From the IMG/VR virus record IMGVR_UViG_3300036790_000425, positions 64,001 to 128,000 of that record: 64,000 nucleotides of DNA. One strand, 5' to 3'. The notes beneath the pieces were generated by a model that saw only the letters and a list, made by a program, of their open reading frames with translations, searched no databases and was not told the DNA's origin. The number at the start of each line of letters is the position of its first letter. The stretch's first letter is position 1. Shown here piece after piece: positions 13,760 to 29,321 of the stretch. Origin of the DNA: a virus. Made by a program: the position numbers and the translations under genes.

Positions 13760-14134
13760 TCAGCCACTGAACTGGCGGCCCTTCCGGGGCGCGAAGCCGA
13801 GGCGGACCGCGTTGGCGGACTCGGGGATCACGATCATCCGCTCTCCCGAGCCCTCGTTGCCCTTGACGTACAGCTCGCCCTCCAGCATCCGGACGTTGAA
13901 GGTGCTGTCGAACCCCATCCCGCCGAAGCGGACATCGGCGGCCCGGCCGAGCGGCCGGGGGACAGCGCCGTAGGCGTCCGCGAAGGTGTCGCTGTCCGCC
14001 GGGCCGGCAGCCAGGGTGGCCCTAGCGTGCGCCAGGTCCTGCTCCAGACGCTGGATGTAGAAGCGGACCTGCCGGGGCAGCCGCGCGATCGCGTCCTCGC
14101 TGAGAGCGCCCTCGGGGCGCTGGTACTGAGTCAT
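13760..14134 (-). CDS. Hypothetical protein
   Basis: 124 aa with CAGGAGG RBS. Confidence 0.7.
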   Translation of the reverse strand: MTQYQRPEGALSEDAIARLPRQVRFYIQRLEQDLAHARATLAAGPADSDTFADAYGAVPRPLGRAADVRFGGMGFDSTFNVRMLEGELYVKGNEGSGERMIVIPESANAVRLGFAPRKGRQFSG

Positions 14135-14176
14135 GGCCGGCCTCCTGAGCCTGTTTCGTCTTCCCTTGCTCTGCCG

Positions 14177-14205
14177 ACCTTAGCAAGAAAAGCTGTATTG
14201 AGCAA
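14177..14205 (-). promoter_or_regulatory. SigA-like promoter with the conserved box
   Basis: TTGCTC-N17-TAAGGT. Confidence 0.75.
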
Positions 14206-14206
14206 G

Positions 14207-14422
14207 CTACCGGCAGCGCTGCCGGTGCAGCCTCCGGGCTTCCCCGGTCATCCGGATGGCGTTGCCGGAGGCCACGCCCAGGATGATGAGGGAGAACCCG
14301 AGGACGCCCAGCGTGCTGCCGGCCTGGTGCCAGATGATCATGCGCCAGATGATGACACCCGTCCCGGCCAGGGACAGTGCCGCCATGTAAGCCCAGACCA
14401 TCAGGGCTGTCCGGTTGCGCAC
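14207..14422 (-). CDS. Small two-TM membrane protein
   Basis: Two hydrophobic stretches. GGAGG RBS. Confidence 0.55.
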   Translation of the reverse strand: MRNRTALMVWAYMAALSLAGTGVIIWRMIIWHQAGSTLGVLGFSLIILGVASGNAIRMTGEARRLHRQRCR

Positions 14423-14706
14423 GTGACCCCCTCCCTCAGCAGGGCGGCGGCCCGGCAGGCCCGCAGGTACCCGGGGCTGTCACTGTCGTGCATCCGGCGG
14501 ATCGCGATGTCTCCCCACAGGCCCGCCAGCCGCTCGCTCACGCCGGCCTCCCCGGCCTTGTCCTCCAGGTCGGCCTGAGCCTCCTCCAGCTGGCACACGA
14601 CCTCCTCGAACTTCTCCCGGGCCCACTTCGGCAGCCGGGTGAACTTCCGGCGCTCATCAGCGGTCAGGATGGCCAGCACGCTCTCGTCGATGTAGACCTC
14701 AGCCAC
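14401..14706 (-). CDS. Hypothetical protein
   Basis: GTG 14706 after GGAGG, overlapping the upstream stop. Confidence 0.5.
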   Translation of the reverse strand: MAEVYIDESVLAILTADERRKFTRLPKWAREKFEEVVCQLEEAQADLEDKAGEAGVSERLAGLWGDIAIRRMHDSDSPGYLRACRAAALLREGVTCATGQP

Positions 14707-15517
14707 CGGGCTCGTCCTCCCGCAGGCCGTTGTGCCCGGGCTGCTCGCAGTCGGGGTCGCCGCAGGACGGCATCCGCCTGCCGGCGGGCAGGGCGGCCCG
14801 GACGATGGCATCATCCAGGACCGACTCGATGGCAGACTCCGCGCTGACCCGCATGGCCAGCACCCGGTCGCTGGGGGTAGCAGCGGCCGGGTGCTCCGCG
14901 CTCATCGCGTCGTAAAGCGAGTCGTCGTGACGGAGCAGGCGGCCGATGACGGCGTCATCGGAGGCCCGGTGAACGCTGACGACGGCCAGGCCGTCACCGC
15001 CCCAGGACAGCCGGGCCACGACGGTGCCGCCGCGCAGCACCTGGGACCGGCGGATGGTGATGGTCACGGGCTCTCCTCTCGTGGTGTACCGGCCGGCGCT
15101 GTCACGCAGCGCCTCGGCCAGCGGGATGATGCCGCAGCTCGGGCAGCAGCGGCTGGCGCCGCCCATGACCTTGTGGCGGCGCTCCTCGGCCCGGTCGCCG
15201 GGCCAGGTGCGGGCCAGGTGCCAGGTGGCGCCGTGACTGCGGGCGATCCGCAGGAACTTCGCGCCGCCGCTGGTCCGGTGGTCGATCATGCGCTGCTCCA
15301 GCCGGCCCTGTCGGCAGTGCCCGTAGTAGTGCCGCAGGGCCAGGTGACCGCGCAGGTCCTCGCCCGGCCGGGCCAGCCGCACGCGCTGGCCCCTGTCGAA
15401 CAGCAGCGCGCGGTCCAGGTGGATCAGGTAGACGGTGCCGCGCGGGTCCTCCTGGGGCACCAGTGCCGGGTCCAGGCCGCGGAGGCACGGGACGGGGTCC
15501 AGCAGGACGGCGGCCAC
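14699..15517 (-). CDS. GIY-YIG-like nuclease in frame with a second domain (internal start at 15067)
   Basis: GTVYLIH...HYYG...LEQRMIDH...GAKFL...WHLARTW...EERRHK...CPSC. Confidence 0.6.
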   Translation of the reverse strand: MAAVLLDPVPCLRGLDPALVPQEDPRGTVYLIHLDRALLFDRGQRVRLARPGEDLRGHLALRHYYGHCRQGRLEQRMIDHRTSGGAKFLRIARSHGATWHLARTWPGDRAEERRHKVMGGASRCCPSCGIIPLAEALRDSAGRYTTRGEPVTITIRRSQVLRGGTVVARLSWGGDGLAVVSVHRASDDAVIGRLLRHDDSLYDAMSAEHPAAATPSDRVLAMRVSAESAIESVLDDAIVRAALPAGRRMPSCGDPDCEQPGHNGLREDEPGG

Positions 15518-15520
15518 GGC

Positions 15521-15856
15521 TCAGGCCTCCTGGCCCTGCTCGATGCGGGTCCACTCGCCGTCCGCCAGGTGCAGCAGGGGCGCCAGCTCGCGGGTGACGG
15601 TGTGGGCGAAGGGCAGCTTCAGCAGCCGGCCGCAGCTGACGGCCGCGCTCTTGCTGGCCTGCGTCAGGTCCGCGGCCGAGGTGCCGTTCAGCATGCCCGG
15701 CTGCTGGGTCCCGTGAGTCAGGCAGCGGGTGCTCGCCCAGCCGCTCACGTGGTAGGGCAGCAGCTCGATGACGTGGCGCTCGCGGCGGCCGGACCCCTGG
15801 TACTTCACGATCACAGTCTGCTGGTGGTTCTTCCCGTGCATCCCGGCCTTGGTCAT
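15521..15856 (-). CDS. Hypothetical protein, probably leaderless
   Basis: ATG lies 6 nt after the TAAGCT -10 box. Confidence 0.55.
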   Translation of the reverse strand: MTKAGMHGKNHQQTVIVKYQGSGRRERHVIELLPYHVSGWASTRCLTHGTQQPGMLNGTSAADLTQASKSAAVSCGRLLKLPFAHTVTRELAPLLHLADGEWTRIEQGQEA

Positions 15857-15892
15857 AGGGACAGCTTAGCAAGGAAAGCTGTATTAAGCAAG
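15848..15892 (-). promoter_or_regulatory. Promoter and start codon; copy 1 of a 45-bp direct repeat
   Basis: TTGCTT-N17-TAAGCT-N6-ATGACCAAG. 43/45 identical to 16862-16906. Confidence 0.85.
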
Positions 15893-15920
15893 AGGCCCCG
15901 GCAGGATCGCCGGGGCCTCT
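15891..15920 (-). terminator. Hairpin terminator after the ArdC-like gene
   Basis: AGAGGCCCCGGC-aggatc-GCCGGGGCCTCT. Confidence 0.75.
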
Positions 15921-15931
15921 CGGAGAGCTGG

Positions 15932-16870
15932 TCAGGCCGCGGCGTCCTCCGCGATCCCGGCACTGGCCGGGGCGATGCCGGCGGCCTGCGCGGGCATCCC
16001 GTCCACGATCTGGCGGGCGGCCTTCTGGATGCGCGAGCCGGACTCCCTGATCATCTTGCGGGCCTGCCCGGGGTCGCCGCGCATCCAGCTCAGCACGTAG
16101 CCGAAGCTGTAGTCCGAGGTGTCGGCGCCGAGCGCGGCAGCCGCGATGTAGGCAACCGACTCGGCCTCCAGCTCCTTCAGCCCGGCGGGAGCCTCGCTGC
16201 TCTCGTGCAGCAGGACGTGCCCGGCCTCGTGCAGCAGGGTCTTCAGCTGGCCCATCGTGGACCGGCCATCGGTGGCGATCCGGACCCGGCGCAGGCTCCA
16301 GGTCGTGTCGCCGTTCTTGGAACCGGACTCGAAGCGGTCCACGAACTCCACGTCATAGCCGGCCGAGTTAATGAAGGCGACCGCGCGGGCGATCATGCCC
16401 TCGGGCGCCTCGCCCGTCAGCTTGCGGACCGGCCCGGGCAGCGGCTCGCCCTCGGTCTGGCTGATGTCGAATACCGGCACCGGGACGAAGAACGGGATGC
16501 GCCGGGTCTCGCCGGTCTCCTCGTCCTCGACCTTGCGGGAGGACGGGGCCCAGATCCAGATCGCGCGCTGGCGCTGGCCGGTCTCGTCCGGGCCCTTGAC
16601 GTGGCGGCCCAGGAGCAGCCAGCCCGACTTCGGCTTGCCGGTGACCTTGTCGGTCGTGCCGAAGCTGGTGACCCGGGTGGCGTGCGGGCACTGGGCCATG
16701 ATCAGCATCGAGTTGCCGAAGCTGTAGGTGTGGAAGCGGGCCTGCACGTCCAGGTAGGCCTGCCAGGTCGCGGAGGTAGCCAGCGCGTCGATGCCGGCGG
16801 CCAGCTTCTCGGTGATCTCCGCGCGGTGGTCGGTCTTGGCGCGGGCGGGCTTGCGGGTCGTCTTGGTCAT
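15932..16870 (-). CDS. ardC: ArdC-like protein (ssDNA-binding N-domain plus zincin HEXXH domain)
   Basis: FHTYSFGNSMLIMAQCP.AT.V, W...GRHVK, VFDISQT.G, LLHEAGH, ELEAESVAY, SFGYV.SW. Confidence 0.85.
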   Translation of the reverse strand: MTKTTRKPARAKTDHRAEITEKLAAGIDALATSATWQAYLDVQARFHTYSFGNSMLIMAQCPHATRVTSFGTTDKVTGKPKSGWLLLGRHVKGPDETGQRQRAIWIWAPSSRKVEDEETGETRRIPFFVPVPVFDISQTEGEPLPGPVRKLTGEAPEGMIARAVAFINSAGYDVEFVDRFESGSKNGDTTWSLRRVRIATDGRSTMGQLKTLLHEAGHVLLHESSEAPAGLKELEAESVAYIAAAALGADTSDYSFGYVLSWMRGDPGQARKMIRESGSRIQKAARQIVDGMPAQAAGIAPASAGIAEDAAA

Positions 16871-16906
16871 AAGGACAGCTTAGCAAGGAAAGCTGTATTG
16901 AGCAAG
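16862..16906 (-). promoter_or_regulatory. Promoter and start codon; copy 2 of the 45-bp direct repeat
   Basis: TTGCTC-N17-TAAGCT-N6-ATGACCAAG. Confidence 0.85.
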
Positions 16907-16913
16907 TACCTGA

Positions 16914-16948
16914 GAGAGGCCCCCGGCGGCGGCTGCCGGGGGCCTCTC
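16914..16948 (-). terminator. Hairpin terminator
   Basis: GAGAGGCCCCCGGC/GCCGGGGGCCTCTC, 14-bp stem. Confidence 0.75.
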
Positions 16949-16958
16949 CGCGGGACCT

Positions 16959-18866
16959 TTACTGATCGCTGACCGTGTCCCACAGATCCTCGCTGGGCCG
17001 CGGGTTCTCGATCCGTTCGATCTCCTCGGCATGCTCGGAGTTGAACATGGCCCTGATCTCCTCGGCCTGCTGCACGGCCGAGGTGAACAGCCCGGTGAAC
17101 TGCTCCATCGCCTGCTTGGTCCCCGGCCCGATCGGCAGGCCGTCGGCGCTGTCCTTCAGCCCGCTGAAGGCCGCGGCGACCTCAGTCATTGACTCCGGCA
17201 TGCCGTCGAAGATGTCCCGCATCTCGCGGGTCGTGGTCGGCTGGTGGGTGGCAACGGCCGAGCTGAACTGCTCGGCCGCCGAGTGGATGACTCCTGCCAT
17301 GCCTGCTCCTCCTCCTGAGAATGCTGCGGCCGTGCCCGGCCGGCGGCGGCCGGCGAGCGGGATGCTGCCCGGGACCGTGCCCGCGGGCTCCGGCATGCGG
17401 CCGTCCTCCGGGTCCGCCCGGGTAGTCACGGGGCGCTCGGGCGGCCTGGTCCAGTACGTAGGCGGCGCCTGCCTCGCGCGGCTCCGCTTCCTCCAGAATA
17501 GCAAGAAACCTGCCAGGCCCGCGCCTGTCGCGGCGGCGGTGCCCGTCCGGCCGCCCCAGGCGCGCATCCGGGCCCTCAGCGGGGTCCGGCCGCTCCACCG
17601 GCCGGCGATGCGCCGGGCCAGCGGCGGGACGCCGCCCGGGTAGCGCTTCGCCAGCCTCGCCACGCGCCGCGCCCGGAGCCTGCTCGTCTGGGCCCGGGAC
17701 TTCCGCCGGGTCCAGGCATAGCTGTCCCGGGTCTTGATGCACGTGATGGTGCGCCACTTCCGGGCATGCCGCCACCTGCCCCCGGCTGCTGCCCTCCGGG
17801 CGTTATTAGCGGTCTTGCGGCCCTGGGCCGCCGCTACCCGGGCGTCCTTGCGCCGCTGGCGCGAGGCGTGCCTGTAGTCCCTGCGGCCCTGCCGCCCGCC
17901 GCCCTTTCCTGCCTTCCGGTTGTGCCGTGCCAGGCGGGCCGCCTGAGCGCGCTGGCGGCCGGCGGCGGTGGGGTGGCGCAGGAACCGGCCCGCGGCACGG
18001 GTGCGCCGGAGCCTCGGCGCGCCGCCGAGCGCGCCTGGCGCGGCGGCGGCAGCGGCACGGCGCGCGGTCCGGGCGGCGCGGCCCTGCGCCTTCTGGCTGC
18101 GCCGGTACTGGCGCCGCTGGCCCGGGTGGCGCATGCCCGGCCGCCCGCCGGGGAAGCCTGGCGCAGAGGTGCCGCGCCGGCCGAAGACACTGCGCCTGCC
18201 GGTCTTCGCGCCAGCGCCCGTGCCACTGCGCCGGCGGCCGGCCTGGCCCGTGGCGCGCCGTCCCGTGCCGGCTGTCCCGGCACGGCTGCGCCGGCCTCCG
18301 CCGAGCGGGTGGCGCATGGTGCGCTTGCCGCGGGCGCCGGCTCCGCCGGGGACGGAGTGACGGCCGCGCCGGGCGCCTGCCCCGGCGGCGGCGCTGCCCT
18401 TGCGGCCGGAGAACGGGTTGAGCCGGGCCAGGCCCTTCCTGCCCGCGGCGGCGGTCCCGGCGCCCTTCCTGCCGCCGGCCGCGGCGCTCAGGCGGCCCTT
18501 ACGGCCGCCCAGTCCCGCTCCGCCCCGGCCGCTGCCGAGACGGCCGCGCATGGCGCCGCCCAGCCGGCCGCGCTGCCCGCGGGTGATGGTCCGGGTCGTC
18601 CGGGTACGCCGCATCCCCGGCTTGCGCCGGTTGGCGTTGAAGTGCTGCCGGATATGCGGCAGGTAGCGGAGCACCAGGAAGCCGGCGAACAGGGCGGCAG
18701 CCGCGACGATGATGATGATCGCCGTGCCGCCGCCTGCCTTGTGAACCAGGGCGGCGACCCCGGCGACGATGAGCAGCAGGACGGTCCCGCCGCGGCGCCA
18801 CATGTGCGACCGCGGGCGGGATTCCGCCTGCTGGGCGGGGACTGTTTCCTCAGCCAACTGGGACAC
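16959..18866 (-). CDS. Membrane-anchored Arg/Gly-rich protein with a C-terminal helical domain, resembling actinomycete plasmid/AICE transfer-region proteins
   Basis: Two N-terminal TMs, a long basic region, and C-terminus F..EH..EIER..NPRP.E.LWD. Internal RBS GGAGGAGGAG before ATG 17300. Confidence 0.6.
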   Translation of the reverse strand: MSQLAEETVPAQQAESRPRSHMWRRGGTVLLLIVAGVAALVHKAGGGTAIIIIVAAAALFAGFLVLRYLPHIRQHFNANRRKPGMRRTRTTRTITRGQRGRLGGAMRGRLGSGRGGAGLGGRKGRLSAAAGGRKGAGTAAAGRKGLARLNPFSGRKGSAAAGAGARRGRHSVPGGAGARGKRTMRHPLGGGRRSRAGTAGTGRRATGQAGRRRSGTGAGAKTGRRSVFGRRGTSAPGFPGGRPGMRHPGQRRQYRRSQKAQGRAARTARRAAAAAAPGALGGAPRLRRTRAAGRFLRHPTAAGRQRAQAARLARHNRKAGKGGGRQGRRDYRHASRQRRKDARVAAAQGRKTANNARRAAAGGRWRHARKWRTITCIKTRDSYAWTRRKSRAQTSRLRARRVARLAKRYPGGVPPLARRIAGRWSGRTPLRARMRAWGGRTGTAAATGAGLAGFLLFWRKRSRARQAPPTYWTRPPERPVTTRADPEDGRMPEPAGTVPGSIPLAGRRRPGTAAAFSGGGAGMAGVIHSAAEQFSSAVATHQPTTTREMRDIFDGMPESMTEVAAAFSGLKDSADGLPIGPGTKQAMEQFTGLFTSAVQQAEEIRAMFNSEHAEEIERIENPRPSEDLWDTVSDQ

Positions 18867-19989
18867 CTCCGGGGATGAAGGGCTGAGCAGGGGCGATCAG
18901 GTCGCCCTGCCCGTTCGCGTGCCGGGCCGGCGGCAGCGGCCGGAGGCGCTGGGCTCGCTCGGCTCGCTCGGCGTTCAGCAGCCTCGTGCCCCAGCGCCGC
19001 TGATCGGACTCCTCGGGCGGGGCGATCATGCGGGCGACCTGGCGGTAGGTCGTGGCCGCCAGGTCAGTGTCGGACAGGCCGGCCAGCTGATCGGCCACCT
19101 CGCGCCGGCGCTCGGCGCTGACCCCGGCGGGGACCCGGGCATCGGCGCTCAGCTCAGCCGCCGCGCTGTGCACGGCGGGCACCAGGCTCAGGCGGCCTGG
19201 CGCGGCGTCCTCGTGCGCCATCGCTGGCACGTCCTCGTGCGCCATCGCTGGCGCGGCTGGCGCGGCTGGCGCGGCTGGCGCGCTCTCGATCGCTGGCACG
19301 TCCTCGCGCGCCACCACCTCCGGCACGGATGGCGCGGGCAGTGATGGCGCGGGGATGGCGCGGCGCGGCGCGTCCTCCTGGCGCGGGGGCTTGATCACGG
19401 CCGGGCCCTCGGTCATGTAGTCGCTGATGGCACGCTGCGGGCTGGTCTCGCCGTACCAGGTGGCGCGGCGCATCACCCGGAACGAGCCGACCGGGTGCCA
19501 GGCCACGCGGGTGGCTCCGAGCCGGACAGCGTGCTTCTCGATCAGGCCCTGGGCCATCAGCTTGTCGCGGCTGACCCGGCGCGAGTGCACCGACCACAGC
19601 CACGGCGAGATCGAGGACATCAGGCCGAAGATCAGCGCGGCCACGGTCGGCCGCCAGTGACTCGCGAAGTGGCTGTAGTTCATGGCGCCGACGATCAGGG
19701 CCAGCGCGTAGGACGACAGCCGCAGCCGGGCGGTCGAGTCGTTCTTCAGCTGCGCCTCGTGCGCCTGGTAGGCCAGCACGACGGCAATCAGCTCCAGGAT
19801 GACCGCCACCAGGATGACCGACCAGCGCGGCACCGGCAGGTGATCCCGCAGGTAGGCGTACTGACCGATGAAGGCCGCGATGTTCACGCCCACGATCGGG
19901 ACAGCGGTCAGGACAGCGCTCACACCATGCCGGAAGCGGTCACTCCTGATCACTTCCAGGACCTCGGCAGACCCGTCACGCATCGTCAT
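18850..19989 (-). CDS. DUF2637-like multi-TM protein (Spd-like plasmid spreading protein)
   Basis: About 4 TMs, A..LE.IAV, MNYSH, Pro/Ala repeat linker (APA x4, AHEDVPAM), C-terminal HTH-like region. Divergent from traB. Confidence 0.65.
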   Translation of the reverse strand: MTMRDGSAEVLEVIRSDRFRHGVSAVLTAVPIVGVNIAAFIGQYAYLRDHLPVPRWSVILVAVILELIAVVLAYQAHEAQLKNDSTARLRLSSYALALIVGAMNYSHFASHWRPTVAALIFGLMSSISPWLWSVHSRRVSRDKLMAQGLIEKHAVRLGATRVAWHPVGSFRVMRRATWYGETSPQRAISDYMTEGPAVIKPPRQEDAPRRAIPAPSLPAPSVPEVVAREDVPAIESAPAAPAAPAAPAMAHEDVPAMAHEDAAPGRLSLVPAVHSAAAELSADARVPAGVSAERRREVADQLAGLSDTDLAATTYRQVARMIAPPEESDQRRWGTRLLNAERAERAQRLRPLPPARHANGQGDLIAPAQPFIPGGVPVG

Positions 19990-20019
19990 CTCCTCCTCGC
20001 AGTTGTCCTCAGCACATCC

Positions 20020-20048
20020 ACATTATCAAGAAAACCTGTAATCGTCGA
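20020..20048 (-). promoter_or_regulatory. Promoter of the Spd-like operon, with the conserved box
   Basis: TCGACG-N17-TAATGT. Plus strand reads TATCAAGAAAACCTGTAA. Confidence 0.7.
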
Positions 20049-20049
20049 G

Positions 20050-20302
20050 GATCACACCTGCGGAACCCCGGTTTCCGGGGGTCAGGGACCCGCTTCGATC
20101 ACAGTCACAGTTCCTGACCTGCCCGTCCTCGAAACTGTGATCGAGTAGTGATCCGGCAGACCGTGACTGTGACTTAGCGGGGTTCCTTGCCAGGGTCAGG
20201 GGCCCCGGATCACAGCGATCTTTGTTTAGACACGGACACGATCGGTGATCACTAGCAATGAAACTGATATTTTCGACGTTATCCATAACAATGACTGATC
20301 AC
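20050..20302. repeat. Array of GATCAC/GTGATC and GTCAC/GTGAC repeats, candidate clt-like cis site
   Basis: GATCAC or GTGATC at 20050, 20097, 20137, 20148, 20208, 20245 and 20297. Inverted pairs TCGATCACAG/CTGTGATCGA and AGTCACAGT/ACTGTGACT. Confidence 0.6.
20253..20273 (+). promoter_or_regulatory. Conserved box and candidate -10 upstream of traB
   Basis: TAGCAATGAAACTGA-TATTTT, the same geometry as the 6949 and 27379 sites. Confidence 0.5.
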
Positions 20303-20319
20303 TACCGGAGGAGCCGCAG

Positions 20320-22281
20320 GTGAGTGCCCCGACGACCAAGACCTGGGAGCACGTCGCGGAGTGGACAGCGCTGCTCAGCGCTGCCGTGCTCACCGCCGTG
20401 GCTTACCTGCCCGGCATGGGCGCGCCCGCGTGGTGCGTCCCGGTGCTGTCCGCGGTGCTCGGCCTGATCGCGGCGGGCGTGGCCGCTGCCGTGGCCGGCG
20501 GGAGGTTCGCCGCCTGGTGCGCCGCCTACGGCGCATGGTGCGCCGCCTGGAGCTACTGGGCCGGCACGCGCGGCCTGTGGCACCCTGTTGTCGTGATCGC
20601 CTGGATCCTGGGGGCCGTCGCCTTCGTCGCGGCCGGCGCGCTCCTCCTGGCACACCGCCGGCCGGCGCAGCTGGCCATCGAGGCCGCGCCGGACCCCGAG
20701 GAGGCCAGCCGCCTGGAGGTCCTGGCGCAGTGGGACCACCTGTTCGCCTCGGTGGACTGCGAGGGCGTCCGGACGGTCGAGGTCATCGACGACAAGGCCA
20801 CGCCGGGCCGGGTGATCCGGGCCGAGCTGCCGCGCAAGGGGCACCTGACCATCCGCAGCCTGGAGACCCAGGCGCACCGGATGGAGGTCGCGCTGCGGCT
20901 GCGGGAGAACAGCATCACCTTCGCCACCCTGGCGAACGCCGCGGACATCGAGCTGCGGCTGCGGGAGCGGGACCTCATGACCAAGGCCGTCCCGCTGACC
21001 CCGGCGCACTACGCCACCACCATCAACAAGCCGTTCGCCGTCGGCGTGGGCGAGGACGGCAAGATCAAGTCGCTGACCCTGCGCCAGGTCCACATGATGC
21101 TGGTCGGCACGACCGGCGCGGGCAAGTCGAACCTGATCAACGTCCTGACCGGGCAGATGGGCCGGATGGTGGACACCGTCATCTGGTGCATCGACATGAA
21201 GGGCGGCCGGGTCGCCCGGCCGTGGCTCCTGCCGTGGATGAACAACGAGACCGATCAGCCGGTCTTCGACTGGGTGGCTACCAGCCGGAAGGAGGCCGCG
21301 CTGATGATGGACTGCTTCGTGATGGCCATCACCAGCCGGATGAACTCCGGCCGGGGCGGGTCGAAGATCACCCCGAAGGCCAATATCCCGCAGATCATCC
21401 TGCTGGTGGACGAGGCGGCCGACCTGATCGGCCAGGACAAGGGCCCGACCCTGGCCGAGGCCGAGCGGCTCGGCGTGCTGACCAACCGGCAGTTCGCCAA
21501 GCGCTTCGGAGAGATCACCCAGAAGGGGCGGTCCGAGGCTGCCTCCGCAGTGATCGCCACCCAGCGGGGCACCAACAGCATGTCCGGTGACGGCGACATC
21601 AAGGGTCAGTGCAAGACCCGGATCCTGCTGGGCACGGTCAACGAGAATGAGGCCCGCTACGTGCTGAACGACGACCCGCAGGCCTGGCGGCTGGCCACGA
21701 TGGCCTCCGCCATCCCGGGTGCCGGGGTCATCGGCGTCGGCCGGGACACCTCGCTGCTGGTCAAGTTCTTCCTGCTGGACCACCCGGAGGTGCCGGGCAC
21801 CGAAACCGGCGAGACGCTGTGTGATGACGGCTGCGTGCCGGAGTGCGCGGTCCGGATGACCGCGATCGAGACCGGCCGGGTCCGCCCGGCGCTGGACCAG
21901 GAGACCGCCGCCAGCATGGGCGAGACCTACGCCGACCGGTGGGCCCGGGCCCGGGACGCTGGCGTCATCACCCGGGTGCCTGCCCGGCGCCAGGTGGCCG
22001 CGGTCAGCACCGCCGGGTTCGAGCAGATCATGTCCGACTCGGGGATGACCGACCCGGACCAGGACGTGGACCCGCGGCGGCTGCGGATGCGCGAGCTGCT
22101 GGCCTCCCGGGGGCCGGCAGGCGGCACACCCAACTTCCTGTGGACCAAGATGGCGGAGGAGGGCATCACCGTGGCCCGGGAGACCCTGTCCCGGTGGCTG
22201 CGCGCCGACGCCGACCGCGGCCTGTGCCACTCGGCTGATGAGCATGGCCGCTGGCGGATCGGCCAGAAGCCGGCCGCCTAG
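20320..22281 (+). CDS. traB: TraB-type FtsK/SpoIIIE DNA translocase
   Basis: Four N-terminal TMs, Walker A GTTGAGKS, IDMKGG, Walker B LLVDE, IATQR, C-terminal winged-helix (VARETLSRWL). GGAGGAG RBS. Confidence 0.85.
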   Translation: MSAPTTKTWEHVAEWTALLSAAVLTAVAYLPGMGAPAWCVPVLSAVLGLIAAGVAAAVAGGRFAAWCAAYGAWCAAWSYWAGTRGLWHPVVVIAWILGAVAFVAAGALLLAHRRPAQLAIEAAPDPEEASRLEVLAQWDHLFASVDCEGVRTVEVIDDKATPGRVIRAELPRKGHLTIRSLETQAHRMEVALRLRENSITFATLANAADIELRLRERDLMTKAVPLTPAHYATTINKPFAVGVGEDGKIKSLTLRQVHMMLVGTTGAGKSNLINVLTGQMGRMVDTVIWCIDMKGGRVARPWLLPWMNNETDQPVFDWVATSRKEAALMMDCFVMAITSRMNSGRGGSKITPKANIPQIILLVDEAADLIGQDKGPTLAEAERLGVLTNRQFAKRFGEITQKGRSEAASAVIATQRGTNSMSGDGDIKGQCKTRILLGTVNENEARYVLNDDPQAWRLATMASAIPGAGVIGVGRDTSLLVKFFLLDHPEVPGTETGETLCDDGCVPECAVRMTAIETGRVRPALDQETAASMGETYADRWARARDAGVITRVPARRQVAAVSTAGFEQIMSDSGMTDPDQDVDPRRLRMRELLASRGPAGGTPNFLWTKMAEEGITVARETLSRWLRADADRGLCHSADEHGRWRIGQKPAA

Positions 22282-23012
22282 CCTGCCGCGGCGGGGGCCT
22301 CGGCCGGGGCGATCTCGGGCGGGGCCTCCACTGCTGCTACCGAGGGAGTCGCGGGCAGCGGCGGCTGGCCCGCGGCCGAGAGCGTCTGCTCCACGTCCGC
22401 GCCCAGCGTGCCGCGGTCGGCGTCGGCGCTCAGGATCTTCCCGGTGGTGTCGTGGTACTGCTGCATCCGGCGCCGGGCCTCCCCGAGCCGGCCCTCCATG
22501 TCCTGGAGCCGCTGCGCGGCGCCCTCGCTGACCGCCGCGGAGTGCGCGGCGGCCTGGTCGGTCATCCGCTTGGCCTCCGCCCGCGCGCCCTCCAGGGCGA
22601 TCTCGGCCTGCTCCCGTGCCCCGGCCGCGACCTTGTCGGCCTCCTCGCGGGCGTCGGCCAGGAGCTGGCGGGCGGCGTCCTCCGCGTCTGATCTCAGCTG
22701 CGCCGCGGACTGGTCGGCCTCGGCCTTCTGGCCGGCCAGCTCCTCGGCCGCCATCCTCATCAGGTCGGCCACCAGCCTGGTCGCCTGCGGAGACTCGGCC
22801 GCCTTCGCCAGGGTCTGCTCGGCGTCGTGGCCGAAGTGAGCCACCTGCCGCTCGGCGTCGTGCAGGCGTGTCAGGATCCGGGCGATCCAGGAGTCCACCT
22901 GCTTCGGGTGATAGCCGCCGGCCCCCTGGACCTGGTCGAACCGGGGATCCAGGTCGGGGTCGGCAGCCGGGCCGAGGTCGGTCACCGGGTACTGCTGGGT
23001 GTCGCTGGTCAT
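22278..23012 (-). CDS. DivIVA-domain coiled-coil protein
   Basis: RFDQVQGAGGYHPKQVDSWIARI matches the DivIVA F....GY...VD.F/W pattern, followed by a long A/E/R heptad coiled coil. Confidence 0.75.
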   Translation of the reverse strand: MTSDTQQYPVTDLGPAADPDLDPRFDQVQGAGGYHPKQVDSWIARILTRLHDAERQVAHFGHDAEQTLAKAAESPQATRLVADLMRMAAEELAGQKAEADQSAAQLRSDAEDAARQLLADAREEADKVAAGAREQAEIALEGARAEAKRMTDQAAAHSAAVSEGAAQRLQDMEGRLGEARRRMQQYHDTTGKILSADADRGTLGADVEQTLSAAGQPPLPATPSVAAVEAPPEIAPAEAPAAAG

Positions 23013-23034
23013 GAGGAGTCCTCCGCGGGATGAG

Positions 23035-23217
23035 TCAGGTGTCGTAGACCCCGTCAGCCACGGCCGGGACCTGAACCCAGGAGGACGTGGCGATCGGGCC
23101 CGTAACGCCCGTGCCTGGCAGAACGGTACCCGGCGCGACGGTGATGCGCTGGGACATCGCCGTGGCCGCCAGAACCGCCCGGGCCGCCAGGGCCGCGCTC
23201 CCGCTCACCGTGGCCAT
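23035..23217 (-). CDS. Small probable virion protein
   Basis: MATVSGSAALAARAVLAA resembles the repeat unit of the 60704-62728 protein. Coupled to the upstream gene. Confidence 0.5.
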   Translation of the reverse strand: MATVSGSAALAARAVLAATAMSQRITVAPGTVLPGTGVTGPIATSSWVQVPAVADGVYDT

Positions 23218-23495
23218 CAGGCCCCCATCAGGCTCCCGGCCGCGATCTGGGACGCGGTGAGCGTGTAGGTCGTGTCGGTGAAGCCCTGGTCGGTCCCGTC
23301 AGCCAGCTGGCACTCGTACTGGTTGCCCGGGTCCCGGGTGGCGTCAGCCGCGTCCGAGAGCACCACGGCGCCGGTCCCCGGCACCCAGCCCTCCCAGGTA
23401 GCCGGATCCCCGACCACGGTGAAGGCCGAGCCGCCGGTCAGCTGATCAGCTGAGGTCTCCACCGGGTAGGTCAGCGTGGTCACGTCCTCCGCCAT
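23217..23495 (-). CDS. Small acidic beta-rich protein, probably structural
   Basis: 92 aa, tightly packed in the operon. Confidence 0.55.
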   Translation of the reverse strand: MAEDVTTLTYPVETSADQLTGGSAFTVVGDPATWEGWVPGTGAVVLSDAADATRDPGNQYECQLADGTDQGFTDTTYTLTASQIAAGSLMGA

Positions 23496-23496
23496 C

Positions 23497-23889
23497 TCAG
23501 GCCGCCAGCGTGAGCGATCCCGAGGCGATGGTGAAGGTGTCGCCCGAGTTCGTGGTCTTGGCCGCGGTGAGCGCGCCCCACCAGGTGCGGATAGGCGAGC
23601 CGGCCGAGTCCCACAGCTCTACGCCGTTGATCGTGGTCGCCGGCATGTTGGTCACCGTGACCGCGACATTGGAGGCCTTCGAGCCGGCCGAGGCCGCAGC
23701 GAAGGTGACCGTCGGGGCGCCCGTGCCGGAGGTGTACCCGCCGCCGGTCGCCAGCTCGGTGCCGTTGCTGGTATTGCTGCCGTTGGCCGTCATCAGCCGG
23801 CAGGTGATGGGCGTGGTCGGTGAGGTAAGCGTGCCGCCGACGCTGGCGTCCAGCAGCTTGTTCGAGAACGTCTGGTCGAGGCTAGACAC
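23497..23889 (-). CDS. Phage fibre/collar-associated small structural protein
   Basis: NKLLD...GTELATGGGY...VTFAAAS.G...LWDS...WWGAL...KT...GDTFTIASGSL. Confidence 0.65.
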   Translation of the reverse strand: MSSLDQTFSNKLLDASVGGTLTSPTTPITCRLMTANGSNTSNGTELATGGGYTSGTGAPTVTFAAASAGSKASNVAVTVTNMPATTINGVELWDSAGSPIRTWWGALTAAKTTNSGDTFTIASGSLTLAA

Positions 23890-24085
23890 TGGTCGGGCTC
23901 CCGTTCAGGATGGTGAGGCAGCTTCCGTCGGGGCACCCTGCCTGAGCGCAGCACCTGAAGTGGCGGCTGATCATCTCCAGGCCCTGGTCCGCGGGGACCA
24001 CGATCTGGTGGTGACCTTCGGTATCCACCTCATGACAGCCTTCGCACTCGCGCTCCACCCGCGCCGGGGCCTGCGGGTCGCTCAT
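23882..24085 (-). CDS. Small Cys/His-rich protein
   Basis: RECEGC..D...HH...HFRCC...CPDGSC. AGGAGG RBS. Confidence 0.65.
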   Translation of the reverse strand: MSDPQAPARVERECEGCHEVDTEGHHQIVVPADQGLEMISRHFRCCAQAGCPDGSCLTILNGSPTSV

Positions 24086-24114
24086 GGGCACCTCCTGATC
24101 CTTCTGGGGTTGGG

Positions 24115-25104
24115 TTACCAGGTGCGGAACACGGCAGAGGCGCCGACTGCCGCCCGGGTGTCGGTCCGCTTGACGTCCACCGCGGTGACGGCGGACCAGC
24201 CGTGCGCCGGCACGACGTGCACGGCCTTGCCCGTGGTGAGTGCGCGGGCAAGGGTCTGGGGTCCGTGCTTGACGTCGTGCAGCGTGACGTGCACGACCGC
24301 GCCGGTCTGGCCGGCCAGGCCCAGGGAGCAGCTCGCGTAGGCGGCCGGCTCCTTGTACTCGGCCGCGTCGGCCCACACCGGGAAGCTGACCGGGGGCTGT
24401 CCCGGCACCAGCGGAATGATCATTTCGTCTCCCTGGGCAGTCGGCTTCGGCTGGGCGGCGGCCGGGAGGACCCGGGCCGCGAGCTGGGCCTCAGTGCCGT
24501 GGAAGGCAGAGCAGTCCACGGGTCCGGAGATCCCGCTGATCGAGGCCTTGTCGGTGAACTGGAGCAGTACCGGGGTCCGGCCGCCGTAGGGTGCCCACCA
24601 GGACGCCGGGACGTGGCCGTACAGGGCCGCGGGGTCGCCGCCGCCGGACACGTAGGAGCTGGCCCACAGCCAGTCCGCGAAGGTCAGCGACTGGCCGCCC
24701 GTGTACCAGTGCGGGGCGTAGCCGCCGACGGGGTGCCGGGGGTACAGCTTCCGCAGCTCGGCCACGGCGTCGGCGGCCTGGGCGTGCGTCGGGCTGCCGT
24801 CGGGGGCCCGCTCGTAGTCCACGGCGATGCCGAACCGGGACAGGTCCCCGGCGTGCTCGGCGAAGAACGAGGCCTGCGCGGAGCCGCTGCCCTTAGCGTC
24901 CAGGAACAGGTAGGCCAGCGGCACGAACCCGTGCCCGGCGATCCGCAGCATGGCCGTCCTGGAGGCCGCCCAGCGGGGGTTGACGTAGCCCGTGCCCTCG
25001 GTGACCTTCTCCGCGCCGAATCGGCAGCTGGCGCTCACGCGGGCCCAGTCGGGGCTGCCCTGGAAGGACGAGCAGTCCGGCCCGTAGATAACTTTCCCGG
25101 TCAC
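24115..25104 (-). CDS. Endolysin, GH25 muramidase with a C-terminal beta domain
   Basis: GPDCSSFQG, KVTEG, VDYE, LWASSY, LLQFT, GPVDCS. Confidence 0.88.
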   Translation of the reverse strand: MTGKVIYGPDCSSFQGSPDWARVSASCRFGAEKVTEGTGYVNPRWAASRTAMLRIAGHGFVPLAYLFLDAKGSGSAQASFFAEHAGDLSRFGIAVDYERAPDGSPTHAQAADAVAELRKLYPRHPVGGYAPHWYTGGQSLTFADWLWASSYVSGGGDPAALYGHVPASWWAPYGGRTPVLLQFTDKASISGISGPVDCSAFHGTEAQLAARVLPAAAQPKPTAQGDEMIIPLVPGQPPVSFPVWADAAEYKEPAAYASCSLGLAGQTGAVVHVTLHDVKHGPQTLARALTTGKAVHVVPAHGWSAVTAVDVKRTDTRAAVGASAVFRTW

Positions 25105-25184
25105 ACATCTTCCGGGGGCCCGAGGCCATCGTGATACTCTCGGCCACGAGGAGTGAGGACCCGGCCATGCCTGCGTCTCCACAT

Positions 25185-25227
25185 AAAGAGAGCCGCTCCC
25201 GGCGCAGGGGAGCGGCTCTCTTTTTTT
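25185..25227. terminator. Intrinsic terminator, potentially bidirectional, with the longer U-tract on the + strand
   Basis: AAAGAGAGCCGCTCCC-loop-GGGAGCGGCTCTCTTTTTTT. Confidence 0.85.
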
Positions 25228-25241
25228 CTTCCGGGGAAGGC

Positions 25242-27284
25242 TTACCGGAGGATCTTCAGGTAGGCGGCGGCGTCCTGCGGGCTGGCCAGCTCGGCCGCCG
25301 GGGGCAGGGCCTTCATGATCTGCCTGCCGTACTGCTTGCTCCGCAGCCGCGGGTCCAGGATGGCGACCAGGCCGTTGTCATCGGCGTGCCGGATCAGCCG
25401 GCCGAAGGCCTGGGTCAGGACCAGGATCATGGCCGGGATGGTCAGCCGGTCGAAGCCCGCCCACCTGTTGTTGTACTTCTTGATCATCGCGTCCACCCGG
25501 GCCTGGTTCAGCAGGTCAGTGGGGACCGCGAACGGCAGCTTGTCGATGACGACCAGCCGCAGCGCCCTGCCCGGGATGTCGATGCCCTCGAAGAACGTCC
25601 GCAACCCGAACATCACCGCGTGACCGTTCTCGCGGAACTGGCGGACCATCTCGGGCGGCGGGTAGTCGTCCTGCCTCAGGACCAGCAGGCCCTGCGACCG
25701 GAAGTGGGCGGCCAGCGCCTGGTGAGACTCGTTCATGGCGCTGCGCGAGGTGAACAGCAGCAGGGCGCCGCCGCCGGAGGCGTCCACCAGCCCGCGGGTT
25801 GCCGCCTGGGCCGCTGCCCGCCACGACATCTGAGTCGGGCCGGCCGGCTCGGGGAAACCCTTGCCCGGAACGAACAGCCGGGACTGGACACGGAAGTTGA
25901 ACGGCGAGCCGGCGTCGAAGGTCAGCGCCTCGCCGGCGCTCAGGCCCAGGGTCTCGGCCAGGTAGCCGAAGTCCGGGCTGCCGTCGCGGAGCTGGCCGGT
26001 GGTCAGGGTCGCGCTGGACATGATGACCGGGAAGTTGTCCCACATGGCCGCCCGCAGGAACGGGGCCACGCTGACCGGGGCGGAGCGCAGGATCGACCTG
26101 GTGACCTGCCGGCCGCGGGACTCATACGTCATCCGCTCTACCCAGCGGACGGTCTTGCTGGCCTCGTCAGCGCTGAAGGCGAGCAGCCGCTCCATCCAGG
26201 TGTCGGTGCGCCGCATCAGGCGGGACCGGGTGATCTTGACATCGTCCCCCAGCGGGCGGGTGTTCTTGACCTCGGTGCGGGCGTTCTCGATGGCCTGGTA
26301 GACCGCGGCGATGCCGTCGCCCAGCTCGGTGATGATCCGGCTCGGGCTCAGCGGCATCGGGTCAGCCTTGCCGCGCTGCGACTCGATGAAATCGGCGTAA
26401 GCGTCGGTGATCGTGGCCCACAGACCGGTAACGGCTACCTCGATGTCCCGGCCGAAGTCGGTGTCCATGCCGGTCTCCATGCTCAGGTAGCCGTCAATCT
26501 CACGGGCCATCCGGATCAGGGTGCCGTCGGAGATCGTGTCCTCCAGGGCGCTGGTCGCAGCATCAGGCAGGGTGTGCCCCTCGTCCACGGCCAGCGCGCC
26601 GATCTCGCCCAGCAGCGCGACGTTGCCGCCGGACTTCAGCCGCAGCACCAGGTCCTGCATCAGCATGGCGGTGTTGGTGACCACGATGTCCGCGGTCTCG
26701 GCCCTGGCCTTGGCCCGCTCCGCGAAGCACGTCCGGGCGAAGGGGCAGTCCTTCTTGCCAGGGCACTCCGCGGACGACATCGAGAACGGGATCCAGTCCT
26801 GGTTGGACAGGGCAGGGAAGTCCTCGCGGTCGATGACCTCGCCGGCCTTCACGGCCTCGTCGGTGCTCAGCTCGGCCATCCGGGCGAGGACCCCGCGCTG
26901 CACGGCAGTCGGGGTCTTCATGCCGGCGGCCTTGGCCTGGCACGGGTAGTTGGCGCGGCCCTTCAGCGCGGCGAAGGTGAACTGGATGCCCAGGTGCTCG
27001 GCCAGGAACGGCAGGTCCTTGCCGGTGTACTGGTTCTGGAGCGCCTTGGTGGCGGTCGCCACGACCGAGCGCATGCCGGTCTCCCGGGCGCGGATGATCA
27101 GCGGGATCAGGATGGCCAGCGACTTGCCGGTGCCGGTGCCCGCCTGCATCAGGCCGGGGCACTCACCGGACAGGGCCTGCTCGATCTGCTCCGCCAGCGC
27201 AAGCTGGGTGGCGCGGGGCGAGTAGCCCGGAAGGCTTGCCGCGAGGGCATCCTGGGCGTCTGCGAAATTCCTGGGCGTATCCAT
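25242..27284 (-). CDS. dinG: DinG/YoaA-family Fe-S helicase
   Basis: R..Q, AGTGTGKS, ATATKALQ.Q, LKGR.NY.C, CPGKKDCPF..C, VDEGH, SATL, LFTS, FFEGID, KLPF, QAFGRLIR. Confidence 0.92.
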   Translation of the reverse strand: MDTPRNFADAQDALAASLPGYSPRATQLALAEQIEQALSGECPGLMQAGTGTGKSLAILIPLIIRARETGMRSVVATATKALQNQYTGKDLPFLAEHLGIQFTFAALKGRANYPCQAKAAGMKTPTAVQRGVLARMAELSTDEAVKAGEVIDREDFPALSNQDWIPFSMSSAECPGKKDCPFARTCFAERAKARAETADIVVTNTAMLMQDLVLRLKSGGNVALLGEIGALAVDEGHTLPDAATSALEDTISDGTLIRMAREIDGYLSMETGMDTDFGRDIEVAVTGLWATITDAYADFIESQRGKADPMPLSPSRIITELGDGIAAVYQAIENARTEVKNTRPLGDDVKITRSRLMRRTDTWMERLLAFSADEASKTVRWVERMTYESRGRQVTRSILRSAPVSVAPFLRAAMWDNFPVIMSSATLTTGQLRDGSPDFGYLAETLGLSAGEALTFDAGSPFNFRVQSRLFVPGKGFPEPAGPTQMSWRAAAQAATRGLVDASGGGALLLFTSRSAMNESHQALAAHFRSQGLLVLRQDDYPPPEMVRQFRENGHAVMFGLRTFFEGIDIPGRALRLVVIDKLPFAVPTDLLNQARVDAMIKKYNNRWAGFDRLTIPAMILVLTQAFGRLIRHADDNGLVAILDPRLRSKQYGRQIMKALPPAAELASPQDAAAYLKILR

Positions 27285-27337
27285 CAGATGTCCTCCCGAA
27301 GTGTCACTTCCGCCCTTCCGGCCGGAGCGGTAGTCCC

Positions 27338-27399
27338 ATTCTATTGGCAAGGAACCCTATAGCGCAAGCTGAATGAGGTAGCAACCAACCTTGTATCAT
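27338..27399. promoter_or_regulatory. Back-to-back promoters for dinG (-) and the SNF2 gene (+), each with a box variant
   Basis: Minus: TTGCGC-N18-TAGAAT. Plus: TAGCAACCAACCTTG-TATCAT-N6-GTG. Confidence 0.7.
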
Positions 27400-27405
27400 C
27401 AGAGG

Positions 27406-28992
27406 GTGACAGCCGTGGCGGAGGCAGAGACGGGCTGGCCGGACGGGGTGCTGTTCTGGCCCCCGCGCCAGATTCCCTACCAGACCGACTACATCACCCG
27501 CATGTACCTCATGCGCCAGGCCCTGCTCGCGGCCGACCTCGGGACCGGCAAGACCGTGATGTCCCTGGGGGTGGCCGGCCTGGCGATGGAGGACGGCGAC
27601 ATCGACCTGGTGCTGGTCGTCTGCGAGCGCAACAAGCTCAGCGAGTGGAAGGCCGACTTCGGTACCTTCACCCGGATCCCGGCCGAGGTCTACCACGGCC
27701 CCCGCCGCAGGCGGCTGCTGGAGGGCCCGCTCCCGGCCGCGGTGATCACCACCTACGAAACCTGCCGCGACGACGTGGCCGTCTTCCCGCCGAGGAAGTC
27801 CAGGGCCCGGACCCTGTCCCCCGGGCCGCTCATGGACGCGCTGCGGGGCCGCCGGGTGCTGGTCATCTACGACGAGGTGACTAAGCTCGGCAACCGGTCG
27901 AGCAACCTCTACAAGGGGCACTTCTGGATGCTCGGTCAGCTCCGGAAAGAGGACCCGGGCCTGCGGGTCATCGGGATGAGCGCCACGCCGATGGACACCG
28001 GGTTCGAGAACATCTTCAACGAGATGCGGGTGATCGCGCCGCAGGCCATGCCGAAAGTCACCGAGTTCAGCCGGCGCTGCATCCGCAGCCGGCACCCGAA
28101 ATACGGCACCCCGAGCTACAGCGATGAGGGCGTGGCCTGGTTCCGGTCGCTGGCCGAGCCGTGGATCCTGCGCAAGCGCAAGAGCGACCCGGACGTACGC
28201 GAGTTCTTCCCGCCGCTCACCGAGCGGTTCATCCGGCTGGACATGGGACCGCGGCAGCTGGACGCCTACCGGGCGCTGGAGGACCTGTCCTGGGACGAGG
28301 AGGGGAACTTCCGCGACGTGCCGGGGCTGGCCACGGCGCTGCGCCAGCTGGCCGGGGATCCCTGGGCCATCCTGGAGGGCGCCCGGACCGGCAGCTCACC
28401 GCTGACGAAGATGGTGGCTGAGCAGGACGTGATGGGCGCGGAGCTGGAGCGCTGCTCATCCGCCAAGGCCGACGAGCTGGCCCGGCTGTGCGACCTGGTG
28501 ATGTCCTCGGGCGGCAAGCTGCTGGTGTTCACGTTCTTCGGCCAGAGCGTGCTGCCCGCGCTCGCCCGCCGGCTGGGAGACCGGCCGGTCTGGACCTACC
28601 ACGGCGGCCAGTCCACCAGGGAGCAGGACCGGAGCCGGCTGGCCTTCCGCGGGCACCACGGAGGCGGGATCCTGCTCGCCTCTGACGCCGGGGCGCGGGG
28701 CATCAACCTCCCCGAGGCGTCCTACGTCGTCAATTACGACGTGCCCCGCACGCACGCGCTGGCCCAGCAGCGGGCCGGCCGGGGGCACCGGCTGGGGAAG
28801 GAGGACCCGCTGACCGTGATCACCTTCATCCTGGAGCACACGCTGGAAACCCGGTCCTCGATCCCGACCCTGCTGCGGCGCAACCGGCAGCAGGACTACA
28901 TTCTCGGGGACGAGGGTGCCGAGGGCCACGTGAGCGCCGCGGACCGCGCCCTAATGTTCGCCCAGTCCCGCCCCAGGAGGCCCCTCGCATGA
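27406..28992 (+). CDS. SNF2-family helicase
   Basis: YQ, ADLGTGKT, ITTYE, IYDEVT, MSATP, LVFT.F, SDAGARGINL, NYDVP, QRAGR.HR. Confidence 0.9.
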   Translation: MTAVAEAETGWPDGVLFWPPRQIPYQTDYITRMYLMRQALLAADLGTGKTVMSLGVAGLAMEDGDIDLVLVVCERNKLSEWKADFGTFTRIPAEVYHGPRRRRLLEGPLPAAVITTYETCRDDVAVFPPRKSRARTLSPGPLMDALRGRRVLVIYDEVTKLGNRSSNLYKGHFWMLGQLRKEDPGLRVIGMSATPMDTGFENIFNEMRVIAPQAMPKVTEFSRRCIRSRHPKYGTPSYSDEGVAWFRSLAEPWILRKRKSDPDVREFFPPLTERFIRLDMGPRQLDAYRALEDLSWDEEGNFRDVPGLATALRQLAGDPWAILEGARTGSSPLTKMVAEQDVMGAELERCSSAKADELARLCDLVMSSGGKLLVFTFFGQSVLPALARRLGDRPVWTYHGGQSTREQDRSRLAFRGHHGGGILLASDAGARGINLPEASYVVNYDVPRTHALAQQRAGRGHRLGKEDPLTVITFILEHTLETRSSIPTLLRRNRQQDYILGDEGAEGHVSAADRALMFAQSRPRRPLA

Positions 28993-29321
28993 ATCAGCGC
29001 CTGATGGATATCGGTGCCGAGAAGGTCAGGACCGCGATCGAGAACCTGCCGGTCATGCAGGTGGTCCGTGACCAGATCGAGTGGGAGGTCATCCCGCTGG
29101 TCGGCGCGAGCGGCCTGCTGCTGTGCATCCCGATGATCTGCATGCCGATCCCTGGCTCCGAGGACTACGTGCTGCACACCGGGATGCCGGGCTTTGACCC
29201 GCACACCGACCAGGCCGAGGTGGATCACGTCATCCGGACGGTCACCGAGGGCGTGCAGAAGGACTGCGACCAGCGCCGGGCCCGGACCAACGGGTCCGGG
29301 CTGTGGAAGCCGGGCAGCTAG
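28989..29321 (+). CDS. Hypothetical protein
   Basis: ATGA-coupled to the SNF2 gene. Confidence 0.65.
   Translation: MNQRLMDIGAEKVRTAIENLPVMQVVRDQIEWEVIPLVGASGLLLCIPMICMPIPGSEDYVLHTGMPGFDPHTDQAEVDHVIRTVTEGVQKDCDQRRARTNGSGLWKPGS

Follow-up and report, generated by a model that had tools for sequence, protein, structure and literature searches.

This analysis concerns a gene for a DivIVA-like protein (P0001) in a 64,000-nucleotide stretch of uncultured viral DNA, here called the window, which comprises bases 64001–128000 of IMG/VR record IMGVR_UViG_3300036790_000425. The gene lies on the minus strand. A gene for a TraB-like DNA translocase converges on it from one side, and on the other side it follows a block of small genes headed by a lysin gene (Table 1). 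The start codon ATG was read at 23012–23010 and the stop codon TAG at 22280–22278. GC content at the three codon positions is 0.77/0.59/0.89, a pattern typical of coding DNA in this 70% GC genome. The open reading frame (ORF) is a real gene and it is conserved. The encoded protein has a maximum 19-residue hydropathy of 0.64 and no membrane span, and PHROGs has no family for it.

A preliminary description, made from the DNA sequence alone, had placed this gene last in a minus-strand run that begins with the endolysin, with a stop codon overlapping that of traB. Both statements agree with the sequence. Plus-strand positions 22278–22281 read CTAG, giving a 4-base overlap of the two stops. The block is headed by a GH25 lysin gene, and because a hairpin parts it from the DinG-like helicase gene, "last gene of the endolysin run" is a fair description.

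The same description had reported an N-terminal DivIVA signature, and profile comparisons, a structural model and end-to-end homology to cellular DivIVA-domain paralogs all bear this out. Pfam family DivIVA (PF05103) matched the protein with 31.4 bits, residues 31–130 aligning on profile positions 15–114, which is above the gathering cut-off of 28 bits. In a six-frame search of the genome the gene scored 26.3 bits. Two relatives scored 32.5 (P0010) and 19.6 (P0031), so the phage family straddles the threshold. The N-domain motif of the protein is P-x-F-x(5-7)-G-Y-H-x-x-Q-V-D-x-W-I, and that of the family is P-x-F-x-x-[VT]-x-x-G-[YF]-[HD]-x-x-[QE]-V-[DE]-x-[FWY]-[ILV]; several members carry R-G-Y-D exactly like DivIVA. 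The superfamily signature F-x(4-7)-G-[YF]-x3-[QE]-V-x-x-[FWY]-[ILV] is present and in register with solved N-domains.

A phmmer search of the PDB with the single sequence returned nothing useful, and the DivIVA structures were reached by the family profile only. When a profile of 36 family sequences was compared with all PDB sequences, the best match was 7O39 (DivIVA), with an expect value (E) of 2.2e-4 and zero composition bias. Further matches were 2WUK and 2WUJ (DivIVA), 4UG3, 6GPZ, 6GP7, 4UG1 and 8E2B (GpsB), and 6LFA (Wag31). All matches to solved DivIVA/GpsB/Wag31 N-domains, at least 10 in number, align on profile positions 17–66. Feature neighbours in the ESM Atlas are DivIVA-domain clusters of Actinomycetota (score 0.93). 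Judged by homology, the protein is a phage-encoded member of the DivIVA-domain superfamily.

The structure was predicted with AlphaFold2 from the family alignment (mean predicted local distance difference test score, pLDDT, 86). The model has a beta bridge 27/34, helices at residues 36–71, 75–200 and 203–213, and a disordered tail; the helix is broken at a conserved S-P-Q at residues 72–74. A long coiled coil had also been claimed in the preliminary description. The model is consistent with this, as helix 75–200 is predicted with pLDDT >90 and carries conserved alanines at positions 88, 99, 110, 121, 132, 143, 154 and 165, eight repeats at a strict 11-residue spacing. Autocorrelation of alanine frequency was 0.58 at lag 11 versus 0.06 at lag 7. 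Cellular paralogs show the same type of 11-residue repeat, judged by eye. The coiled coil is thus a hendecad repeat, which explains weak matches to ATP synthase b, V-ATPase E, FliH and Scy. Beyond the rod, G201 is invariant and R200 nearly invariant in 36 sequences. A Foldseek search with the model placed GpsB/Wag31 N-domains at ranks 1–7, 9 and 10 with E 4–8, none of them significant. Alignment to the same N-domains by VIA-align gave Z 3.4–3.8 and a root-mean-square deviation of 4.4–5.9 over 52–59 residues. A model of the N-domain only showed a beta bridge or hairpin followed by a helix, and had the same weak GpsB/Wag31 top matches as the full model; over both models E was 2.6–8.

Membership in two characterised families was considered and rejected. 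NCBIfam NF050102, the equivalog model of DivIVA/Wag31, gave 28.8 bits against a cut-off of 260, and the gene sits in a phage lysin block, not in a cell-division cluster; the protein is not a DivIVA/Wag31 orthologue. Identity with a Streptomyces DivIVA is about 27% and covers part of the rod only. Together with the equivalog score, this sequence divergence means that co-polymerisation with host DivIVA, which had been suggested in the preliminary description, is not favoured. Scy proteins score at least 1040 bits with model NF041483, are about 1300 amino acids (aa) long and have 51-residue repeats. Scy membership is ruled out by the 23.4 bits of the phage protein and its size of 244 aa.

A word-indexed search of 5.8 billion proteins returned only seven relatives of the phage protein. 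When 1.84 billion representatives were searched exhaustively with a profile, about 35 full-length clusters of 200–275 aa were returned with E 1e-95 to 1e-28, followed by longer proteins of 320–510 aa that match in two stretches. Among 185,579 species genomes the single sequence found no close relative. The longer forms are encoded on chromosomes: P0160 (GCA_009772855.1) lies beside PhoU/Pit and ABC-transporter genes, and P0050 is on a 1.8-Mb contig. Identity between the phage protein and long cellular forms is 30% over residues 33–244 (BLAST E 2e-20). In Actinoallomurus sp. CA-150999 the paralog, a 441-aa open frame (L080), scored 142 bits on a hidden Markov model of the phage family; the canonical DivIVA of this strain and that of a Streptomyces metagenome-assembled genome scored 43–52 bits. 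The cellular paralog family has more than 1700 relatives at E <1e-20 and carries just the automatically assigned name "DivIVA domain-containing protein". By these comparisons, the nearest cellular kin belong to the uncharacterised DivIVA-domain paralogs of actinobacteria and not to DivIVA/Wag31 itself.

A maximum-likelihood tree placed 35 short and 34 long forms on opposite sides of one branch with a Shimodaira–Hasegawa-like support (SH-aLRT) of 99; nine phage/short and two cellular/long sequences were labelled from their genomic context and the rest by length and score. The tree suggests that the compact form of 200–275 aa is a phage-only branch, found in one clade of soil phages of about 100–165 kb that probably infect filamentous Actinomycetota. 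Its origin was probably a single capture of an actinobacterial DivIVA-domain paralog.

Table 1. Features at the DivIVA-like locus, in window coordinates
Feature	Position	Strand	Evidence or remarks
TraB/FtsK-like translocase gene, 653 aa	20320..22281	+	N-terminal membrane spans, Walker A GTTGAGKS; PHROG FtsK/SpoIIIE-like 1.7e-28
Shared CTAG of two convergent stops	22278..22281	both strands	TraB-like TAG 22279–22281; DivIVA-like TAG 22280–22278
DivIVA-domain protein gene (P0001)	22278..23012	-	244 aa plus stop; ORF and translation, ribosome-binding site, Pfam DivIVA 31.4 bits, about 35 homologous clusters
C-terminal R200-G201 motif, predicted short helix 203–213 and disordered Ala/Pro-rich tail	22281..22412	-	alignment and model
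Rod, residues 75–200	22413..22790	-	one predicted 125-residue helix, pLDDT >90; hendecad Ala repeat
DivIVA/GpsB-type N-terminal domain, residues 23–71	22800..22946	-	hairpin then helix; profile matches in register, motif table, models
Ribosome-binding site GGAGGA	23019..23024	-	6 nucleotides ahead of ATG; identified by inspection of the sequence
Conserved 60-aa ORF directly upstream of the DivIVA-like gene	23035..23217	-	22-nucleotide gap; 16 invariant columns in 8 sequences
92-aa ORF	23217..23495	-	conserved C-terminus ...AGSLMGA; 208–212 aa in some relatives
Gp80-like 130-aa protein (virion fibre or head-protein-like)	23497..23889	-	Pfam PF23140 4e-13; PHROG 240 "head protein"; tblastn match annotated "head protein"
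Cys/His-rich 67-aa ORF	23882..24085	-	conserved, 66–67 aa; no family match
GH25 lysin A-like gene, first of the block	24115..25104	-	Pfam Glyco_hydro_25; PHROG endolysin 1.8e-30
Hairpin, 16-bp stem	25185..25223	.	between the DinG-like helicase gene and the lysin block

The window is phage DNA. The record from which it was taken is a 162,435-bp virus, 100% complete according to CheckV, with a GC content of about 70%. Baseplate_J and a number of very large proteins of the tail or baseplate are encoded in the window. Replication and recombination are represented by a Pol III alpha subunit, a primase-polymerase/D5 helicase, RecA and a 5'-3' exonuclease, and a SNF2 helicase is found in addition to the DinG-like helicase, GH25 lysin and Gp80-like genes of the locus. 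Models for ParB_N, AAA_31, tyrosine integrases and serine recombinases had no match in the entire 162-kb record. The phage looks large and virulent because it has no integrase, recombinase, ParA or ParB, and a role of the DivIVA-like protein in anchoring DNA at the pole with ParA/ParB was rejected on the same result. Megablast of window positions 14000–30000 against GenBank phages and PLSDB plasmids gave zero matches. Elsewhere in the window, a 472-aa ORF (57883–59301, plus strand, neighbours on the other strand) has Globin, FAD_binding_6 and NAD_binding_1 domains like a flavohaemoglobin of the nitric oxide dioxygenase type. It could serve as an auxiliary gene for metabolism or stress.

The lysin at the head of the block is 39% identical to lysin A of Mycobacterium, Rhodococcus and Gordonia phages. 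Gene order is conserved from this gene onwards: GH25, a Cys-rich protein of about 66 aa, the Gp80-like protein of 130 aa, a variable gene, the 61-aa gene, the DivIVA-like gene, and the convergent TraB/FtsK-like gene (654–687 aa). This order is kept in 14 loci or contigs, and in every short-form member with enough DNA to judge; it was seen for P0002, P0005, P0006, P0010, P0031 and P0038 and on five IMG/VR contigs of 99–166 kb (L013–L017). All loci checked have the ORF of about 60/61 aa ahead of the DivIVA-like gene. A 4-base overlap of the convergent stops is usual (L001, L007/L008, L011 and the contigs of P0002 and P0038); at L003 and L006 a gap of about 90–100 bp takes its place. The 66–67-aa protein always lies between the GH25 lysin and Gp80-like genes and has the pattern C-x2-C-H ... 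H-H ... C-C ... C ... C.

A hydrophobicity scan of the block found no ORF with a membrane span in 22278–24115. Because no block protein has a membrane span, the block is not a classical endolysin-holin cassette, and that candidate was rejected. Identity of the DivIVA-like protein as a lysis accessory of the holin, spanin or LysB type, for which a membrane span, a signal sequence or an esterase domain would be expected, was rejected as well, since neither it nor the block ORFs have a membrane span and it has no PHROG match. Small ORFs supported by GC content at third codon positions, with two and three hydrophobic segments respectively, lie away from the lysin at 14207–14422 (minus strand) and 48774–49187 (plus strand) and are holin candidates. 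Locus L003 has an extra 58-aa, strongly hydrophobic, holin-like ORF (9333–9509) between the Gp80-like and 92-aa genes, which the window is without. The block mixes a lysin with likely virion parts, because the Gp80-like protein is nearest to annotated head or fibre proteins.

A 1.4-kb metagenome contig (L011, positions 366–1196, protein P0033) carries the 61-aa gene without a stop codon, so that its frame continues across the spacer into that of the DivIVA-like gene. Over its first 60 residues P0033 is 51% identical to the 60-aa ORF of the window (E 4e-11). The read-through may be a true fusion or a sequencing error; a stop codon is lost and the internal start context is kept, so it is weak evidence only.

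The convergent neighbour had been called traB. Its convergence was confirmed, and the name was not: NCBIfam plasmid_TraB gave 36.9 bits (E 1.6e-9) against a cut-off of 800, which makes the 653-aa protein a TraB-like translocase of the FtsK family and not a TraB equivalog. Its sequence is distantly related to plasmid TraB. Relatives were found in genomes of Kribbella, Actinoallomurus, Nonomuraea, Longispora, Frankia, Micromonospora and Pseudonocardia. Because these are filamentous actinomycetes, a mycelial host is supported. The source appears to be an uncultured soil phage of filamentous actinobacteria, and the role of the DivIVA-like gene in infection is put forward below as a hypothesis only. 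The TraB-like proteins of the clade (window, L001, L003, L006 and L008) share two motifs, T-W-E-H at the N-terminus ahead of the first membrane span and G-R-W-x-I-G-P at the C-terminus, ending in A-A. Further along, on the minus strand at 16959–19989, are a DUF2637 membrane protein (18850–19989) and a protein of 635 aa (16959–18866) that has a membrane span near its N-terminus and is very rich in Arg/Gly in the middle. Together with an ArdC-like gene (15932–16870) they resemble an actinomycete plasmid transfer/spread module inside a phage.

In Actinobacteria, scaffolds of the DivIVA type organise growth at the poles, branching and division. The best overall explanation, to which we assign a probability of about 50%, is that the phage protein is a cytoplasmic, oligomerising DivIVA-domain scaffold which is made with the lysin block and acts on the polar/septal growth machinery. 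Its nature as a self-associating DivIVA-type scaffold is very probable. Action at or on the host polar/septal apparatus during late infection is an evenly balanced proposition. By analogy with DivIVA, parallel dimers of the phage protein would join into higher oligomers. The protein would be produced together with the lysin block, probably late, and would gather at or act on the polar/septal growth machinery of the host. There it could concentrate a phage function: the breakdown of the wall, or DNA transfer by the TraB/Spd-like proteins encoded next to it. A protein partner would be expected to bring it there, rather than direct binding to lipid, because the loop is without the membrane-binding residues of B. 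subtilis DivIVA. Alternatively, wall synthesis at the tip could be disturbed so that hyphae fail more easily. A wall-weakening role is conceivable because Streptomyces strains overproducing DivIVA branch excessively, develop swollen tips and die when conditions are hypo-osmotic (PMC13432765).

Several observations weigh against this interpretation. Neither Foldseek nor VIA gave a significant structural match with the full model or with the N-domain-only model. The loop of P0001 reads Q-G-A-G at the place equivalent to F17/R18 of B. subtilis DivIVA, which we take to be the exposed hydrophobic and basic pair that inserts into the membrane. Loop positions are variable across 36 relatives and only about two thirds have one basic residue; P0014 and P0028 are examples with a basic loop. 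Membrane or curvature binding by the protein is not supported by these sequences. The other genes of the block resemble virion parts, as the Gp80-like "head protein" does. No DivIVA-like gene was found within 5 kb of 37 actinomycete TraB-like loci, nor in five viral records, themselves incomplete, with TraB-like genes that are 27–31% identical. Synteny among these phages extends over the entire region, so that having the TraB-like gene next door says little on shared function. The small number of context-checked labels in the tree also counts here.

Four other explanations were weighed. The protein could be a phage polar/septal landmark that places late machinery, the lysin block and/or the TraB/Spd-like proteins, at tips or cross-walls. 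Tip targeting of lysis or DNA transfer, raised in the preliminary description, may occur; we consider the landmark explanation unlikely in this specific form.

Takeover of the host is comparably doubtful. Here the protein would mix or compete with the DivIVA-domain paralog or polarisome of the host, stopping tip growth and branching or weakening the tips. Some mycobacteriophage proteins, Fruitloop gp52 among them, are known to target Wag31. The phage protein is about 30% identical to members of a large cellular paralog family over nearly its full length, with rod and C-terminal motif included, and surplus DivIVA harms Streptomyces walls (PMC13432765). Against this, 30% identity is low for specific co-assembly of coiled coils, similarity to DivIVA proper is very weak, and the cellular paralog is itself uncharacterised.

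Somewhat less credible is an adaptor for a TraB/Spd-like transfer module, which would sit at hyphal tips or cross-walls as a marker and bring the translocase there, letting phage DNA pass from one mycelial compartment to another. The DivIVA-like gene is convergent with the TraB-like gene in every relative with DNA reaching that far, usually with overlapping stops, and the DUF2637 and Arg/Gly-rich membrane proteins adjoin the TraB-like gene. Plasmid TraB acts at hyphal tips in complex with Spd proteins, and the characterised plasmid systems work without a DivIVA-like protein (PMC4447253). The two phage genes lie on opposite strands and are therefore not co-transcribed, the synteny of the whole region makes their adjacency unspecific, and the 37 actinomycete loci and five viral records with TraB-like genes carry no DivIVA-like gene.

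The least probable of the four makes the protein part of the virion or of its assembly, either as a fibrous coiled coil or as a chaperone of the Gp80-like, 92-aa and 60-aa proteins; its DivIVA ancestry would then be irrelevant to poles. The products of the three upstream genes resemble small, beta-rich proteins of virions (Pfam Gp80, PHROG "head protein"), the 60-aa gene immediately precedes the DivIVA-like gene in every case and reads through on one short contig, a tape-measure profile matched weakly (E 0.048) and long helical rods are common in phage fibres, but the family has no PHROG match, the apparent fusion amounts to a lost stop on a 1.4-kb metagenome contig with the internal start context kept, and all characterised DivIVA-domain proteins are, to our knowledge, cytoplasmic scaffolds.

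A literature search for phage-encoded DivIVA homologues found no paper describing one. Among GenBank phages no relative of the phage family or of its cellular kin was found, tblastn giving nothing for P0001 nor for the cellular paralog P0039. A Streptomyces DivIVA query matched only two unannotated gut "Bacteriophage sp." contigs and two short Listeria fragments among GenBank phages, and no cultured Streptomyces phage. A conserved phage-only branch, encoded in a lysin block beside a conjugation-type translocase, leads to testable hypotheses on phages of mycelial, tip-growing hosts. These hypotheses concern the site of lysis onset, the spread of phage DNA between compartments and the reprogramming of polar growth. 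If the protein is a landmark, lysis or cell-to-cell spread of the genome would be spatially targeted in the mycelium. The large cellular paralog family, unstudied so far and with more than 1700 relatives, is flagged as the likely source of the phage gene.

Comparison with known proteins helps to define this protein. With B. subtilis DivIVA (2WUJ/2WUK), Wag31 (6LFA) and Streptomyces DivIVA it shares the type of N-terminal domain, the plan of a cap followed by a coiled-coil rod, and PF05103. Unlike DivIVA/Wag31, it lacks a PQG-rich linker and the membrane-binding loop residues, is encoded outside the cell-division cluster and is phage-borne. GpsB proteins (4UG3, 6GP7, 6GPZ and 8E2B) are the top structural neighbours of the phage N-domain model, none of them significant, and are found among the profile matches too. 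GpsB has a short trimerising C-domain, whereas the phage protein has a predicted rod of 125 residues. The acidic residue that lines the groove for penicillin-binding proteins in GpsB, at the position we assume for it, aligns with Ala44 of the phage protein.

Scy, ATP synthase b, V-ATPase E/G and FliH have the 11-residue periodicity and the Ala/Glu/Arg-rich rod in common with the phage protein. This likeness to Scy and the hendecad stalk proteins is one of repeat type, not of family membership, as all scores are far under the cut-offs. The closest resemblance is to the actinobacterial paralogs of about 320–500 aa, which share the N-terminal F...(R)GY..QVD.F, the Ala-rich rod of hendecad type and a C-terminal ...RRL...H.E...RL...RG.L..EV block. 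The paralogs differ in being 80–250 aa longer than the phage form, with extra rod repeats, a long low-complexity tail and a chromosomal context.

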